Assembly (NCBI RefSeq): GCF_003231495.1
Contig: NZ_PQWO01000001.1
Location: 240,001-272,000, forward strand
DNA from: Acaryochloris thomasi RCC1774
GTDB taxonomy: Bacteria; Cyanobacteriota; Cyanobacteriia; Thermosynechococcales; Thermosynechococcaceae
DNA: 32,000 nt
Reading direction: 5' to 3'
Shown here: positions 23,849 to 29,815 of the stretch, one piece after another
Layout of the letters: every line of letters starts with the position of its first letter
How positions within the stretch are numbered: the stretch's first letter is position 1
Program-made: the position numbers and the translations under genes
The notes under the pieces: model-generated
The model's input: only the letters and a program-made list of their open reading frames with translations
The model's database searches: none
What the model was told of the DNA's origin: nothing

Positions 23849-24052
23849 TTATACAGCGATTTCAACAATTTGGTCTGTGGGTTCAACTGCATCATGACTG
23901 TTGGCAACGCTGAGCCAGCCTTCAATCGCGTCCGCAAGGTTAGCTTTTACTTCTTCCATTGAGTCCCCTTCCGTTATGCAGCCAGAGAGAGCGGGTACCT
24001 CTGCCCAATAGCCTCCTTCTTCTGCGGGATGAATGATGGCTTTGATTTTCAT
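23849..24052 (-). CDS. hicB: HicB family antitoxin (UPF0150 fold)
   Basis: MKIKAIIHPAEEGGYWAEVPALSGCITEGDSMEEVKANLADAIEGWL is HicB-like. I prefer the ATG at 24052 to the maximal ORF start at 24127. Confidence 0.8.
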   Translation of the reverse strand: MKIKAIIHPAEEGGYWAEVPALSGCITEGDSMEEVKANLADAIEGWLSVANSHDAVEPTDQIVEIAV

Positions 24053-24123
24053 ATGCTGGCTTAGCCGTTTATTGAGAACATATTGGCAATGAAATTTACC
24101 CACGTTGCTGTGATTTCGATTGG

Positions 24124-24282
24124 TCAAGTACTTATTAAGGCTTTGTAGGCTTGACTTCGAGTATAGCCAATCGTCTTTATCGATATCTTTAGTGAAGTGT
24201 CGTAACTCTTGCAGGCAAGATGATGAACAGTCTCAGGCAAGGCATTAAAGCGTTCCCAAAACTGAGGTGTGGTTCGAGGCAC
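24124..24282 (-). pseudogene. Truncated ParE/RelE-like toxin remnant
   Basis: A 52-codon frame opens at GTG: VPRTTPQFWERFNALPETVHHLACKSYD... This matches the N-terminal F..F..LP..V...A.K.Y pattern of small cyanobacterial RelE/ParE-type toxins. Similarity is then lost, and the frame stops just upstream of hicB. Confidence 0.35.
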
Positions 24283-24485: not shown

Positions 24486-24539
24486 GAGGGAGGGTTGCTT
24501 TAAGTGTAGAGGAGCTTTTGTATTTTAGCAGGAGCACCA

Positions 24540-24684: not shown

Positions 24685-24882
24685 CTAAAATGCTTTTGGC
24701 AATCCGGCTTGTTTCAGTACCGCATTGGCTGTGTGGCGAGACTTAATGGACTGATCAACGACAAAGCGGTGCTGGGTGATTAGGCTATAGCAGATTTCAT
24801 GATCGCCTTTTCCGCTGCGCTCGAAAGAGCACTCTGCTGCTTTCAGCTTCTTTTTCAGTGCAGGGGTGAACAATTTGGGCAT
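24685..24882 (-). CDS. hicA: HicA family toxin
   Basis: SFERSGKGDHEICYSLITQHRFVVDQSIKSRHTANAVLKQAGL is HicA/YcfA-like. Its ATG immediately follows the upstream gene's TAA (TAAATG junction). Confidence 0.7.
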   Translation of the reverse strand: MPKLFTPALKKKLKAAECSFERSGKGDHEICYSLITQHRFVVDQSIKSRHTANAVLKQAGLPKAF

Positions 24883-25128
24883 TTACACAGTAAGTTGAAT
24901 CAGTTCTTGCCGATGGCTAATTAGCTCAATCTTGATGGCACCTGTGTGATCGCTTGGCAGCAGATGATTCAACTGCAGTAGCTCAGGCACAATAGTCTTT
25001 AGCTTATGGAGTAAAGCCTCTTGAGAGTCAGCTTCAGTCGCAAGTCCAGGAACGTCCTCGCTAGTGGCGGTCCAGACCTGAGCGTCTGAGTCCCAGAATG
25101 CGCCAATTTTGTAGATTTCTTGACTCAT
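24883..25128 (-). CDS. DUF1902-type (HicB-like) antitoxin
   Basis: YKIGAFWDSDAQVWTATSEDVPGLATEADSQEALLHKLKTIVPELLQLN matches the DUF1902 pattern (WD.EA.VW.A.S.D.PGL.TEA...E.L..KL...PELL). Confidence 0.65.
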   Translation of the reverse strand: MSQEIYKIGAFWDSDAQVWTATSEDVPGLATEADSQEALLHKLKTIVPELLQLNHLLPSDHTGAIKIELISHRQELIQLTV

Positions 25129-25382: not shown

Positions 25383-25643
25383 TTAGCTCATTACACTTAA
25401 CTCGTAATGGAGTGCTATAACTTCCTCGGTTTGCAGTACAGCCATTGCATACTCACGACCCTGTAAATCTGTGAACTCCACTAGGTAACGAGGCATGGTC
25501 CCCTCATAAACTTCTACGATAGTTCCTACCTGTCCACTGGGTAAGCTCTCAATAGACTGATAATCTGGCTCTATAAGGGTTAGCCGATCCACTGGAATCG
25601 GATGGAGGTTTGCGATCGTATCTAGAATACCTAGTGCTACCAT
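25383..25643 (-). CDS. DUF4926 domain protein (second gene of a DUF6883-DUF4926 pair)
   Basis: LPSGQVGTIVEVYEGTMPRYLVEFTDLQGREYAMAVL matches the DUF4926 pattern (G..GTIV.VY....YEVEF.D..G). The ATG at 25643 lies 5 nt after the upstream gene's stop. Confidence 0.65.
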   Translation of the reverse strand: MVALGILDTIANLHPIPVDRLTLIEPDYQSIESLPSGQVGTIVEVYEGTMPRYLVEFTDLQGREYAMAVLQTEEVIALHYELSVMS

Positions 25644-25648
25644 TTTCT

Positions 25649-25978
25649 CTACTTGATGAATGCGGAAACTAGACGTGGGTAGGGATTCTCTAAGCTGATT
25701 TCCCAAAGTGTACGCAGGATAACTTGATGGTGATTGGGAACTGACCAATCAACTTTATACAATTGACCAAAATCTGTGTTCGCTTGCTGGATCACTTCTT
25801 CTTCGAGAGCCGTCCTTACAATTAATTCTCGCAAATCCTCCGCATTTTTGGATGTGATACCTAATACGGAGGCGAAAACCCTTGCCTTATGCTTCCCGGA
25901 AGGATGTTCAGAATTCAGACAGTAGCCCTTCAGCTTCTCCATTGGAATTACAGCACGATTACCATTCGGTAACTTCAT
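25649..25978 (-). CDS. DUF6883 domain protein
   Basis: MKLPNGNRAVIPMEKLKGYCLNSEHPSGKHKARVFASVLGI...ILRTLWEISLENPYPRLVSAF matches the DUF6883 family pattern (KL..Y.L...H..GK.KA..F...G ... T.W ... PR.VTAY). Confidence 0.65.
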   Translation of the reverse strand: MKLPNGNRAVIPMEKLKGYCLNSEHPSGKHKARVFASVLGITSKNAEDLRELIVRTALEEEVIQQANTDFGQLYKVDWSVPNHHQVILRTLWEISLENPYPRLVSAFIK

Positions 25979-26424: not shown

Positions 26425-26763
26425 GTGAACATTCCTGATGATGCTCTAATACCGTTGCCTAAGCTTACGGACTATCTGCTGGTCCTGAAGGAGCAAGATG
26501 ACAAGTCACAATTTCTTGCACAGGCTGGGTTCACGCTTGCAAATCCCGAGGCTTTGATCTCAGCAATCAGACAACTTACGCAACAGACAGTCGCAACCTT
26601 ACAGAAAAGTAATCAGTACGGCAGTTACTATCAAGTGGAAGGGATTCTGAAAGGTCCCAATCGCCAAGTGATTGGAGTTGTTACCATTTGGTTACAGCGT
26701 GCAGATGGACAGGTCCAGTTTGTCACCCTTAAGCCTCGAAAGGAGCGTCCCAATGTCTCTTGA
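26425..26763 (+). CDS. DUF6883-like protein (divergent paralogue)
   Basis: GTG start. MNIPDDALIPLPKLTDYLLVLKEQDDKSQFLAQAGF...YYQVEGILKGPNRQVIGVVTIWLQRADGQVQFVTLKP has the same architecture as 25649-25978, but most residues differ. Confidence 0.6.
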   Translation: MNIPDDALIPLPKLTDYLLVLKEQDDKSQFLAQAGFTLANPEALISAIRQLTQQTVATLQKSNQYGSYYQVEGILKGPNRQVIGVVTIWLQRADGQVQFVTLKPRKERPNVS

Positions 26764-27019
26764 CCTTTATCAGCGGATCACACTGAGCCGAGATATCCCA
26801 GAGGAAGGACTTAAGACGGGTGATGTTGCTTATTTGCTGGATTACGTTCCCCATCTTCAGGGCGGGGAGTTGGGTTGCGTGTTGGAAGTTTTCAATGCTG
26901 TGGGAGAGTCAATCTCTGTACTTACGGTGCCAGAATCAGCGATCCAACCATTGCGACCTGATGAAATCTTGAGTGCTAGAGCTTTGGTTCCGACGACCGA
27001 GGCAAAAGCGAGCGGCTGA
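26753..27019 (+). CDS. DUF4926 domain protein (divergent paralogue)
   Basis: MSLDLYQRITLSRDIPEEGLKTGDVAYLLDYVPHLQGGELGCVLEVFNAVGESISVLTV is DUF4926-like. The ATG at 26753 overlaps the upstream gene's end by 11 nt. Confidence 0.65.
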   Translation: MSLDLYQRITLSRDIPEEGLKTGDVAYLLDYVPHLQGGELGCVLEVFNAVGESISVLTVPESAIQPLRPDEILSARALVPTTEAKASG

Positions 27020-27065
27020 TGCCGAAGCGGTAAACATCTTTGTGTCCTGTCCGTTGTAAAGAGAG

Positions 27066-27181
27066 ATCGCAAGTCAGTCTACTCCGATGAAATATCGTAT
27101 ATTCCACTGATTGAGTCTTTGAATGCGATCGCACAAAGTAAAAGCGAGTAGTTGACCTCCAAAAGTGGAGCGATGGAGTGG
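27066..27181 (+). repeat. Inter-cassette repeat, copy D (longest copy)
   Basis: The sequence is atcgcaagtcagtctactccgatgaaatatcgtatattccactgattgagtctttgaatgcgatcgcacaaagtaaaagcgagtagttgacctccaaaagtggagcgatggagtgg. It contains all segments seen in copies A-C. Confidence 0.85.
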
Positions 27182-27300
27182 TAGAAAATGTCCAGCCTAG
27201 AATTCTTCTGAGTTTTAATAGCCAAGCAGTTCTGTTCGATTTCAAGGGCTTTCACATAGGCTACACTTCTAATCAGGTTCAGAATAATCAAGAGAAGTAA

Positions 27301-28467
27301 GTGATCACGGAAACTGAAGTTAAAGATTTAGCAATTAAACAGGGCGTTACATTGCCTCGTGTCGAAAAAGATTATGTGATGGGCTGGCTACTGTGGGGAA
27401 TTTACAATGATCCCGTACTATCAAAAAATTTAGTACTTAAGGGCGGTAACTGCTTACGCAAAGTATATTTTCCTGACACTCGATTTTCTGATGACTTGGA
27501 TTTCACTGCATTTCGACTAGATACTAAGCAGGTGTTTCACCAAAGGCTCAATACAATTTGTGAAAACATACATCGTGCTTGTGGAATAGACTTCGATTTC
27601 GATAATACTCTCGTCAAAACTAAGCAGACACCTGACAAGGATTGTACGGCATTAGATGGTCGAGTTTACTTTCGAGGCTTTGCAGGCGATGCAAGCGTCA
27701 GCATGCGGATCAAGTTTGACATTTCTCAATTCGAGAAAATTGTACTACCCCTACAGAATCACTCTATCCTGCACAATTACTCTGACATTGATGCTTGTAA
27801 AGTTCTTATTCGGACGTACTCCCTTGAGGAAGTCCTTGCAGAAAAGTTAAGAAGTTGGATACAAAGGACTCGATCTCGTGACTTATTTGATGTAGTAAAG
27901 ATTGTGCAGAGCGAAGCTGTTCCTATCAGCAACATTAATATTCTGTCCGCATTCTTTCAGAAAACTATATTCAAAGATATACCGCTGGCCGGACAAGAAG
28001 AAATGCTATATGGACCAAAATTTGAAGGCATTGAGAACAGTTGGTTGAAAACTGTTATCAGTCCTCAGTCATCAATAATTGCAGCAGGAAACGCCATCTC
28101 GCTTTTTAAGGATTTCATCAATGCCTTATTCAAACCGGAGATTCTTGAAGCTGCTGGTTTCTCGCAGGCTAATGTATCCCCACATAATTACAATGTTCGC
28201 TCAGGTGTTCGAGAAGCGATTATTGAGGCTGGAAAAGTTCGAAAATCAATTCGGATGCAATATAAGGGGCGCGAGAGAAACATAGAACCTTACTCGTTTA
28301 GGTACAAAATAACGCAGAGGGGTTATGGCGCTGAATATTTCTATGGCTTTGATAGAACAAGTGGCGCAACTATCAAAAGTTTTTTTCTTCACCAAATTGA
28401 AGGTGTTAGTATACTCCCAGAACAATACATCCCTCGTTGGCACGTAGAATTCAAGCCTGATAAATAA
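27301..28467 (+). CDS. AbiEii/AbiGii-type nucleotidyltransferase (DUF1814) fused to a C-terminal WYL-like domain
   Basis: GTG start. AbiEii signatures are VEKDYVMGWLLWGI, LVLKGGNCLRKVYFPDTRFSDDLDFT and LAEKLRSWIQRTRSRDLFDV. The last ~75 aa, IRMQYKGRERNIEPYSFRY...GAEYFYGFDRTSGATIKSFFLHQIEGVSIL, follow the WYL pattern (Y....R.v.P..l....g.wYl.g.d.....R.F.l.rI..v). Confidence 0.7.
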   Translation: MITETEVKDLAIKQGVTLPRVEKDYVMGWLLWGIYNDPVLSKNLVLKGGNCLRKVYFPDTRFSDDLDFTAFRLDTKQVFHQRLNTICENIHRACGIDFDFDNTLVKTKQTPDKDCTALDGRVYFRGFAGDASVSMRIKFDISQFEKIVLPLQNHSILHNYSDIDACKVLIRTYSLEEVLAEKLRSWIQRTRSRDLFDVVKIVQSEAVPISNINILSAFFQKTIFKDIPLAGQEEMLYGPKFEGIENSWLKTVISPQSSIIAAGNAISLFKDFINALFKPEILEAAGFSQANVSPHNYNVRSGVREAIIEAGKVRKSIRMQYKGRERNIEPYSFRYKITQRGYGAEYFYGFDRTSGATIKSFFLHQIEGVSILPEQYIPRWHVEFKPDK

Positions 28468-28487
28468 CCTGAATATATGCAATGGTT

Positions 28488-28534
28488 CTTTAGGGATGAC
28501 AACAAGCTTTATAGGCTCGTTGTCATCCCTAAAG
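28488..28534. terminator. Perfect 16-bp stem hairpin 21 nt after the AbiEii-WYL stop (terminator or other structured element)
   Basis: ctttagggatgacaac (28488-28503) is the exact reverse complement of gttgtcatccctaaag (28519-28534), with a 15-nt loop. No T-run follows on the + strand. Confidence 0.5.
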
Positions 28535-29086
28535 GATCTCAACACTTGCTGGTAAAATTTAGGCAACATTTTTGTGATGGGGTAGTCGTCTTGACCGCCC
28601 TATTTTCTTTTGTGCCTTGAACACTAGAGCTACCAGCAGCAATAGGGGACAGGTGCCTTGTCATCCCTTAAGGCAATGGTTTCAAGATCAAGTGGGTAGA
28701 GCGCGCTCCTGTAGCTCTATGAGTCAACAACCAATTTGCAGGCTGCCTTGACATTCTCATTTTGAGGTCGAGGTTTAGATTTATAACTGTAAGTAATTTT
28801 GTACTCTACTAACTGAATTTTTAAAGGTGATCGCTTAGAGTAAAAAGTAAAGTAAGTGATTAACGCTTACATGTTGGTAATCAAATAGCGGAGATTGCTT
28901 ACCCGAATTATTTTTGCTACCTATGAATCATGTTGCGTGATGCTAATTGGGTTGTCTTCTAACGGTCCAACTCACTGGCGCGAAAGAGTCCTAGAAATCA
29001 AAGCAGATCTAGTATGCTCAATACTGAGCATCCAGTGCAGTGTAAGTTAGGCAAAACAAAAACACCAAGTCAAAACACTCACTATG

Positions 29087-29548
29087 CTATTCACAGCGAT
29101 ACCCTGGACTTGGCGACCAATTCGGAATTGTACGGATCCCATGATCAATCAAGAAATCTCCTTTGTCTAAGTTACCCTCGCATTTGTCTTCAATACAGAA
29201 ACAAGCTACAACCTCCCCTATTTGATGTTGATATAAAGTTTTCTTATCATATTTTTCAAGAATCATCTCTTCTAATTCTGAAGTAGGTACGACGGATCTT
29301 GATGGATCGTTAACAACGCTCATAGCAAAAATAAATAAAGGAATTCCGCCTAAACAAAGAGTCCACCACAAATATTTTTTAGTAAGGCGCGCTCTATCTC
29401 CAGAGCCTTGAAGGTTCTCGCTGCGTTCCTGCCTCTGCTTTTCATCTATTTCTTGCTGCTTTTGTCCACCTTTTGAAGACTCTCTCGATATGAAAGCCGC
29501 AGCAATAGTAGCGAATGCACCAATTAGTGCAACAATAACTGCTTCCAT
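29087..29548 (-). CDS. Hypothetical small membrane protein (two predicted TM helices, charged linker, Cys-containing C-terminal domain)
   Basis: ATG start. TM1 is MEAVIVALIGAFATIAAAFI, followed by a K/Q/E/R-rich linker. TM2 is WWTLCLGGIPLFIFAMSVV. The C-terminal ~75 aa contain CFCIEDKCEG. The gene is AT-rich, and I recognise no family. Confidence 0.45.
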   Translation of the reverse strand: MEAVIVALIGAFATIAAAFISRESSKGGQKQQEIDEKQRQERSENLQGSGDRARLTKKYLWWTLCLGGIPLFIFAMSVVNDPSRSVVPTSELEEMILEKYDKKTLYQHQIGEVVACFCIEDKCEGNLDKGDFLIDHGIRTIPNWSPSPGYRCE

Positions 29549-29815
29549 AATTCATTGTTTAGTGTTGCGTCGTTTATAACTTAAGCAGGTTTAATCACTT
29601 ATTGTGCGGAATTAATTCTGACAAACATACCCATCAGCTTGCTATACGGATTATATGCTGCATATCATACCGATCAGCCTATTTCTGCGAAAAGTCTTTC
29701 ACACATTATCCTGTTTTAGAGATCTTATACGGACATGTTCTGCATAATTCCCCAATGAACTTATTCCTCATCTAAACACTCAATTCCAGTTCTAGCCTTG
29801 CTGAGCATCGTCCAT

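Follow-up and report, generated by a model that had tools for sequence, protein, structure and literature searches.

A nucleotidyltransferase joined to a WYL module

The window analysed here, the whole stretch of 32,000 nucleotides (32 kb) from the genome of Acaryochloris thomasi RCC1774, carries a gene whose product joins a nucleotidyltransferase (NTase) of the AbiEii/DUF1814 toxin family to a C-terminal WYL domain, and which stands, together with the clade of its relatives, without an adjacent gene for AbiEi, the partner of AbiE toxins. The gene occupies 27301..28467 on the forward strand, where the list of open reading frames (ORFs) gives 388 codons between a GTG start and a TAA stop; the start is backed by the N-terminus MIxxxEV shared by 40 aligned homologues. 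The product is 100% identical to C1752_00274, a hypothetical protein of A. thomasi RCC1774 that UniRef labels 'WYL domain-containing protein', and the contig index holds no entry for its exact sequence.

Residues 1-288 (27301..28164, forward strand) make up the NTase domain, which is supported by profiles and structural model and has an alpha/beta catalytic lobe and a helical C-terminal lobe. The Pfam family AbiEii (PF08843) matches residues 31-210 with an E-value of 4e-29 and 102.6 bits against a cut-off of 22.5 bits, the PADLOC AbiEii sub-models reach 2e-60, and the PADLOC model PDLC02317 (AbiEii, 396 positions) spans residues 1-386 end to end at 6.5e-57. An NCBIfam search of the protein gave no match, nor did a phmmer search of the whole protein against the PDB; with a profile of the family as query, lactococcal AbiGII (9hlo_B, E 6.5e-8) was the best sequence-level match in the PDB, and MenT4 was also found. 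The full-length AlphaFold2 model, built from an alignment of 41 sequences, has a mean predicted local distance difference test score (pLDDT) of 86.5 and a predicted template-modelling score (pTM) of 0.78, the NTase domain lying mostly above a pLDDT of 85. The predicted structure has the bi-lobed fold of the MenT/AbiEii type: a Foldseek search with the full model returned MenT3/TglT (6j7n) and MenT4 (6y56), both at E 1e-8 with target-normalised template-modelling (TM) scores of 0.61-0.62, and as the next match JHP933 (4ok0; target-normalised TM 0.67-0.68).

All four DUF1814 motifs (hGG, DxD, hDh and the C-terminal KLxA..R..RD..D) are present, each on the forward strand. Motif I (K47-G48-G49, 27439..27447) is invariant in the 41-sequence alignment and kept in the three lineages W, T and S; motif II, which includes the putative phospho-acceptor (R61-F-S63-D-D65-L-D67-F68, 27481..27504), is likewise invariant; motif III (K138-F-D140, 27712..27720) is invariant in the clade, with its aspartate kept in all three lineages; and the DUF1814-specific motif IV (E181-K-L-R-S-W-I-Q-R-T-R-S-R-D-L-F-D197, 27841..27891) is invariant or nearly so. 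S63, within 'RFSDDLDF', aligns with the serine of 'RFSTDLDF' in MenT4 and is, together with the motifs, identical in the three lineages. In MenT3 and in the AbiEii of Streptococcus agalactiae, antitoxin-induced auto-phosphorylation of S78 and T65, respectively, turns the toxin off (PMC11375011; bioRxiv 10.64898/2026.01.19.700257), and from the MenT4 alignment and the position in the motif we infer that S63 is the counterpart of these residues.

The NTase domain is followed by a flexible linker (residues 289-298, 28165..28194), the sole internal segment with a pLDDT below 50 and one that varies in length and sequence across the alignment, and then by the WYL module (residues 299-384, 28195..28452), delimited from the PADLOC WYL model, Pfam matches in relatives and a domain-only model. 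The module comprises a helix (301-312), a five-strand Sm/SH3-like barrel (315-375) and the conserved P378-R379-W-x-V-E-F. At the sequence level, the Pfam WYL family (PF13280) finds nothing at E≤1 in the window protein alone; the last 88 residues match the PADLOC WYL model with an E-value of 2e-5, 22 of the 41 aligned family members match PF13280 (best E 3.5e-8), and a sequence profile of the tail run against PDB chains returned only noise (carbonic anhydrase, merlin). The domain-only model of residues 297-388, with one helix, five strands and a pLDDT of 87.6, has WYL domains for all its top 17 PDB matches, including PafBC (6sj9), DriD (7tzv and 8tp8) and BrxR (7qfz), and several of the top DriD matches are structures bound to single-stranded DNA (ssDNA). 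These 17 superpositions have TM scores of 0.61-0.70 and identities of 16-25% over 81-98 columns, with root-mean-square deviations (rmsd) mostly of 1.8-3.0 Å and at most 4.5 Å; the full-length model, too, gives a local BrxR match (83 columns, rmsd 2.7 Å). Because the structural matches are to WYL domains and short AbiEii relatives stop at about residue 285 of the window protein, the C-terminal segment is a WYL domain and not the ordinary C-terminus of DUF1814. The tail is among the best-conserved parts of the family, and its conserved R326, Y331, K359 and R379 are compatible with a ligand-binding role, although they prove nothing. The helix-turn-helix (HTH) families of Pfam and NCBIfam have no match in the protein, and the chain ends about 10 residues past the barrel.

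Much of this had been anticipated by an earlier note on the sequence, which proposed the same reading frame, AbiEii/DUF1814 NTase signatures over residues 1 to about 300 and a C-terminal WYL domain. The frame was borne out as given, the signatures are both present and invariant, with Pfam, PADLOC and Foldseek in agreement, and the fold comparison confirms the WYL domain, now placed at residues 299-384. The separate profile searches that the note suggested gave a strong signal for the NTase and one for the WYL domain through PADLOC, with Pfam matching only in relatives, and the structure prediction it called for revealed the SH3-like WYL barrel; the objection it raised itself, that the tail might be a normal DUF1814 C-terminus, falls with the WYL fold. 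Its view that the NTase-WYL fusion is not a described architecture did not hold, as the combination is listed by Makarova et al. 2014, represented by PADLOC PDLC02317 and reflected in the UniRef name. Makarova et al. described WYL combined with an 'AbiGII-like nucleotidyltransferase (DUF1814)', that is, the same architecture, and proposed for it the same role, regulation of an Abi system by a sensor of negatively charged ligands; the fusion was listed there with its partners not analysed, and the AbiEi-less clade was not described (PMC4012209). In the literature searched, no functional study joins 'AbiEii' or 'DUF1814' with 'WYL'.

The fusion is also common. The window protein has 279 word-sharing homologues of about 384 residues and 51-77% identity, and a far larger set surrounds a distant relative: its best 120 matches cover 98-100% of the 417-residue fused query, and 118 of them have the same WYL tail. 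Searching with a profile of the tail yielded 660 representatives of clusters at 50% identity; the sampled matches with an atypical length or position were mostly N-terminally truncated AbiEii fragments (e.g., P0253, P0283 and P0270). Hosts of the clade range over Chloroflexota, Saccharibacteria, Micrarchaeota, Bdellovibrionales, Acidobacteriota and Planctomycetota and include plasmids of cultured Sinorhizobium, Sphingomonas and Streptomyces, and no relatives were found in viral contigs. The fusion being already catalogued and common, the sole new element is the consistent, conserved AbiEi-less state of the clade.

The clade without AbiEi and its AbiEi-paired sister lineage

Short AbiEii genes from the same genome scan served as controls, and in 61 of 63 a gene of about 270 codons abuts or overlaps the toxin start. 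The partners tested are AbiEi, with PADLOC E-values of 1e-73 to 1e-88 and Pfam matches to AbiEi_4 and AbiEi_1. An AbiEi profile built from 58 partners of related short AbiEii genes matched all 64 sources of the control genome loci and 52 of the 56 sources of further short-AbiEii loci from metagenomes. The same profile matched none of the 31 sources in the first set of clade members, searched in six frames and including the window (best E 0.16), none of 23 clade loci from metagenomes and none of three loci on plasmids from cultured bacteria; the 32-kb window, translated in all six frames over its whole length, gave no match either (best E 6.1). With duplicates removed, these clade sources together represent about 45 distinct loci, at 35-77% identity to the window protein. 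The absence of AbiEi claimed in the earlier note thus extends, by the profile search, from the window to these loci. The arrangement that defines AbiE, in which AbiEi (COG5340, a winged HTH followed by a C-terminal domain) is encoded immediately upstream and as a rule with an overlap, is missing here and in the clade; the putative phospho-acceptor, a serine here, is in place.

No other neighbour takes the position of AbiEi across the clade. Among 22 non-redundant loci, an all-against-all BLASTP comparison of genes within 2.5 kb found no family in more than two loci, and small flanking ORFs (at least 25 codons, within 500 nt, 33 loci compared) are not conserved beyond duplicate or near-duplicate loci. 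The homologue survey that had been suggested thus found the fusion itself conserved, but no conserved neighbour in the window's clade. Genes of 203 or 204 codons were seen next to members of one sub-clade (L086 3390-4004 and L092 3388-3999; also L087, L093, L094 and L105), overlapping the AbiEii-WYL gene by 4 nt or separated from it by 1 nt. The L086 and L092 versions are 38% identical; their similarity to the PADLOC candidate PDC-S54 (E 1e-36) is limited to its N-terminal half, Pfam finds no family in them, and the gene may be an unrecognised antitoxin or partner. A single upstream partner of about 203 residues shared by the clade was considered and rejected, as the genes in L006 and L111 are one and the same GIY-YIG-like sequence, those in L086 and L092 are PDC-S54-like, and both types are confined to sub-clades. 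AbiGi-like genes were noted 58 nt downstream of the AbiEii-WYL gene in L090 (5195-6070) and 1.4 kb upstream of it in L083 (2853-3617). Neither PDC-S54-like nor AbiGi-like partners are present in the window. The three plasmid loci belong to an intermediate AbiEi-less lineage, at 35-37% identity and 412-465 residues, on large plasmids of Sinorhizobium mexicanum (pEmeITTGR7a, L178), Sphingomonas parapaucimobilis (L179) and Streptomyces sp. NBC_01455 (L180); L178 and L180 each have a further gene annotated as a nucleotidyltransferase no more than 1.5 kb away.

The picture changes in a more distant and larger lineage, the one with the shared tail in 118 of 120 proteins. Proteins of 390-480 residues with 27-31% identity to the window protein have the NTase-linker-WYL layout too, and a canonical AbiEi adjoins the toxin start in all six of their loci examined: it overlaps the start by 4 nt in four (L024, L175, L176 and L177), in L124 its reading frame stops at the point where the toxin match starts, and it ends 10 nt upstream of the toxin on a Thiodictyon plasmid (L181). 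Aligned to each other, the tails of both lineages correspond residue for residue (IEPYSFRY with VEPYSLRR, PRW-VEF with PRY-IEL). The earlier note had taken the discovery of an adjacent AbiEi in homologous loci as evidence against its proposal; such genes do exist in the distant homologues, but not in the window's own clade. Many of the AbiEi-paired proteins (P0169 and similar ones of about 470 residues) also have a further Cys-rich tail of about 80 residues past the WYL domain, with weak matches to zf-BED/C2H2, which suggests a nucleic-acid-binding C-terminal arm.

Since the sister lineage has the tail plus AbiEi, the tail did not originate as an AbiEi substitute; it predates the loss of AbiEi and is independent of that loss. 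The logic implied by the earlier note, in which WYL replaces AbiEi, is not sustained. In a rough neighbour-joining tree of the NTase domain, midpoint-rooted and without support values, the solo clade is monophyletic and nested among AbiEi-paired lineages, so that AbiEi was probably lost in the ancestor of the clade, which is the simplest history.

The surrounding islet and flanks

The AbiEii-WYL gene comes last in an islet resembling a set of toxin-antitoxin (TA) modules, with two HicA/HicB-type and two DUF6883/DUF4926 pairs. On the reverse strand lie a HicB-like/HicA-like pair (23849-24282), a HicA/DUF1902 pair (24685-25128) and a DUF4926/DUF6883 pair (25383-25978), and a second DUF6883/DUF4926 pair (26425-27019) has the opposite, forward orientation; the overlapping, recurring pairing of DUF6883 and DUF4926 looks like a two-gene module. 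The islet is bounded upstream by housekeeping genes (glucokinase, D-Tyr deacylase, Hsp70-like) and on its other side by a DSHCT helicase. The flanks have a GC content of 51-54%, the islet one of 45-47%, and the AbiEii-WYL gene with the 1.2 kb or so behind it (27000-29700 of the window) one of 40-41%; the drop is consistent with the gene lying in a low-GC insertion acquired horizontally. An unannotated ORF of 153 codons (29087-29548, reverse strand) lies in the same low-GC stretch and matches neither Pfam nor PADLOC. Elsewhere, relatives of the gene adjoin BREX (BrxC/helicase), TIR-NTPase, methylase, Prok-JAB and serine recombinase genes, and some are on plasmids.

Between the TA-like pairs, which face either way, are four direct copies of a repeat of about 120 nt, all on the same strand (at 24535, 25226, 26193 and 27060-27181, the last being copy D). 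Their mean identity is about 70%, and a 47-nt core pattern has four matches against zero expected. We rejected a reading of these repeats as integron attC sites: as ssDNA they fold weakly (z -0.8 to -2.9), there is no integrase nearby, and Rfam gives no match. The intergenic region upstream of the AbiEii-WYL gene (27020..27300, 281 nt) contains no conserved gene and holds copy D, which the earlier note had correctly set before the gene, and a 40-codon ORF with a GTG start (27178-27300) that touches the AbiEii-WYL start and lies partly within copy D. The note's statement that the upstream 120 bp has no ORF beyond a few codons needs correcting on account of the latter. No promoter was found in the 281 nt and no intrinsic terminator was called after the gene, both scans being uninformative for a cyanobacterium. 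Beginning 21 nt past the stop codon is a near-perfect hairpin with a 20-bp stem (inverted repeat I2, 28488..28534), which has a free energy of -18.6 kcal/mol and a z of -8.8 and lacks a T-run; it could represent a dispersed palindrome or else a structure that ends or stabilises the transcript. One arm of the hairpin is seen again 138 nt downstream (28651-28673).

Control of an AbiEii enzyme without AbiEi

With AbiE of Lactococcus and S. agalactiae and with MenAT3 and MenAT4 of Mycobacterium tuberculosis, which are type IV and now proposed type VII TA systems, the window protein shares the DUF1814 fold, the four motifs and the serine or threonine beside DxD; it differs from their toxins in the additional C-terminal WYL domain of about 90 residues, and those systems have an AbiEi/MenA (COG5340) partner, whereas the window gene and its clade have none adjacent. 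The AbiEi-paired AbiEii-WYL proteins (PDLC02317; for example L024, L175-L177 and WP_100922825 of Ca. Thiodictyon pTs417) have the same NTase-linker-WYL layout but are only 27-31% identical, have AbiEi at the toxin start in each of the six loci examined and often end in a zinc-finger tail. The regulators BrxR, CapW, PafBC and DriD, of HTH-WYL(-WCX) type, share the WYL barrel, but their N-terminal winged HTH and C-terminal WCX domain are missing from the window protein; with an enzyme as the partner domain, its output would be catalytic, in contrast to their transcriptional one. AbiGII of lactococcal AbiG is the nearest PDB chain by sequence, but the association with AbiGi is not conserved: the window and most other loci lack AbiGi, and the two members with AbiGi-like genes in their vicinity belong to one sub-clade.

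We read the gene as encoding a stand-alone, AbiEi-less NTase of the AbiEii/MenT toxin family, horizontally acquired, whose WYL domain binds a ligand and whose restraint is supplied by something other than AbiEi, and we give this a probability of roughly 0.55. MenT and AbiEii enzymes act on the single-stranded 3' ends of tRNA (PMC7450476, PMC10435456, PMC11375011, bioRxiv 10.64898/2026.01.19.700257). By analogy with MenT1, MenT3, MenT4 and the AbiEii of S. agalactiae, the enzyme would add nucleotides to tRNA 3' acceptor ends and bring about translation arrest, which would serve as a growth-arrest or abortive-infection effector. The WYL tail, to judge from DriD with ssDNA, PafBC and BrxR, would bind an anionic ligand, a single-stranded nucleic acid being the likeliest one, and the binding would be coupled to the output of the NTase. 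As the tail is also present in the AbiEi-paired sister lineage, the WYL domain is probably an activating or targeting module in both lineages. In relatives, the restraint comes from auto-phosphorylation that AbiEi induces at the counterpart of S63, and the solo clade would have to achieve it otherwise; candidate substitutes are intramolecular control, low expression (given the GTG start and the lack of a recognisable promoter) and a trans-acting factor.

Several points weigh against this reading. What the WYL domain binds, and whether the coupling amounts to activation, inhibition or substrate binding, are drawn purely from analogy, and, because WYL and AbiEi coexist in the sister lineage, a WYL domain is not a sufficient sign of self-containment. 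A trans-acting AbiEi is possible elsewhere in the A. thomasi genome, the search having covered the 32-kb window. In the P0075/P0098-type sub-clade, the upstream 203-residue gene is translationally coupled to AbiEii-WYL, and the P0067/P0070-type sub-clade has AbiGi-like genes nearby in varying positions; with candidate partners in two sub-clades, the 'solo' state is not universal in the family. The tree behind the inferred loss of AbiEi is, as noted, a rough one.

What the WYL domain does divides the closest competing explanations. It may be a substrate-binding arm, its Sm-like barrel gripping the 3' end of tRNA or another RNA or tethering the enzyme to nucleic acid with no role in sensing, and control of toxicity would then lie in the expression level, a balance of phosphatase and auto-kinase or an antitoxin in trans. 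Among the top structural matches are WYL domains that bind single-stranded nucleic acid, as in DriD with ssDNA, the substrates of MenT and AbiEii are single-stranded tRNA ends, the extra zinc finger (zf-BED/C2H2) past the WYL domain of the sister lineage fits such an arm, and the coexistence of WYL and AbiEi is compatible with it; still, short AbiEii/MenT enzymes modify tRNA without any such module, how the solo clade escapes self-intoxication is left unexplained, and we hold the arm to be a possible but rather doubtful alternative. The model of the earlier note can instead be worked out as an antitoxin in cis: the WYL domain would hold the NTase off through occlusion or, in the manner of AbiEi, through auto-phosphorylation of S63, and a ligand from a phage would lift the block, so that a single polypeptide would form a complete abortive-infection system. 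The whole clade lacks AbiEi but has kept the catalytic residues and S63, the tail is highly conserved, the pTM of the full model may indicate a defined arrangement of the two domains, and ligand sensing is what Makarova et al. 2014 (PMC4012209) proposed for the fusion. However, tail and AbiEi occur together in six of six sister loci, so the tail did not evolve as a substitute for AbiEi, and some sub-clades have other coupled partners; we consider this model unlikely. A similarly low likelihood attaches to a self-contained abortive-infection switch, in which the WYL domain would have taken over the role of AbiEi and the binding of phage ssDNA or single-stranded RNA would free the NTase, or reverse or block the auto-phosphorylation of S63; the freed enzyme would halt translation by modifying tRNA 3' ends.

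Two further explanations were weighed. The gene could be an orphan toxin, the remnant of an AbiE pair that is cross-neutralised in trans by another AbiEi or is barely expressed: the GTG start, the 281-nt upstream region without a promoter-like site and the position in a mobile islet of TA genes within a low-GC insertion speak for it. Against this, the solo state recurs in about 45 loci of many phyla, at 45-77% identity and with invariant catalytic residues, which argues for long-term purifying selection on the solo form and not for recent decay, and we find the idea decidedly improbable. More improbable by far is an overlooked adjacent antitoxin, either a small protein or, in the manner of type III systems, an RNA from the upstream repeat. 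The 40-codon ORF abuts the start, the 120-nt repeat precedes the gene, and some DUF1814 toxins do use antitoxins of smaller size than AbiEi or of only remote kinship to it (MenA1, SanaA); yet none of the small ORFs within 500 nt in the 33 loci is conserved other than in duplicates or near-duplicates, and the repeat, besides its weak fold and lack of an Rfam match, also precedes HicAB-type and DUF6883/DUF4926 pairs and is thus not specific to the gene.

Overall, the stand-alone enzyme with a ligand-binding tail remains our preferred reading, and the interest of the clade lies in what it has kept and what it has lost. Defence-system finders that require a pair of AbiEi and AbiEii will probably overlook a clade without AbiEi. 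For comparison, forms with WYL and AbiEi and forms without WYL are available side by side, and cultured Sinorhizobium, Sphingomonas and Streptomyces have plasmid-borne homologues; WP_180941829, WP_347092308 and WP_329296042, respectively, are homologues from these genera. The family offers a tractable route to the signal sensed by a WYL domain whose direct partner is an enzyme and not a DNA-binding domain. DUF1814 toxins such as AbiEii and MenT are known to be silenced by antitoxin-induced auto-phosphorylation; this widespread and conserved clade, which keeps the putative acceptor and the catalytic residues and has probably lost the antitoxin, is a natural experiment in controlling such a toxin in the antitoxin's absence.

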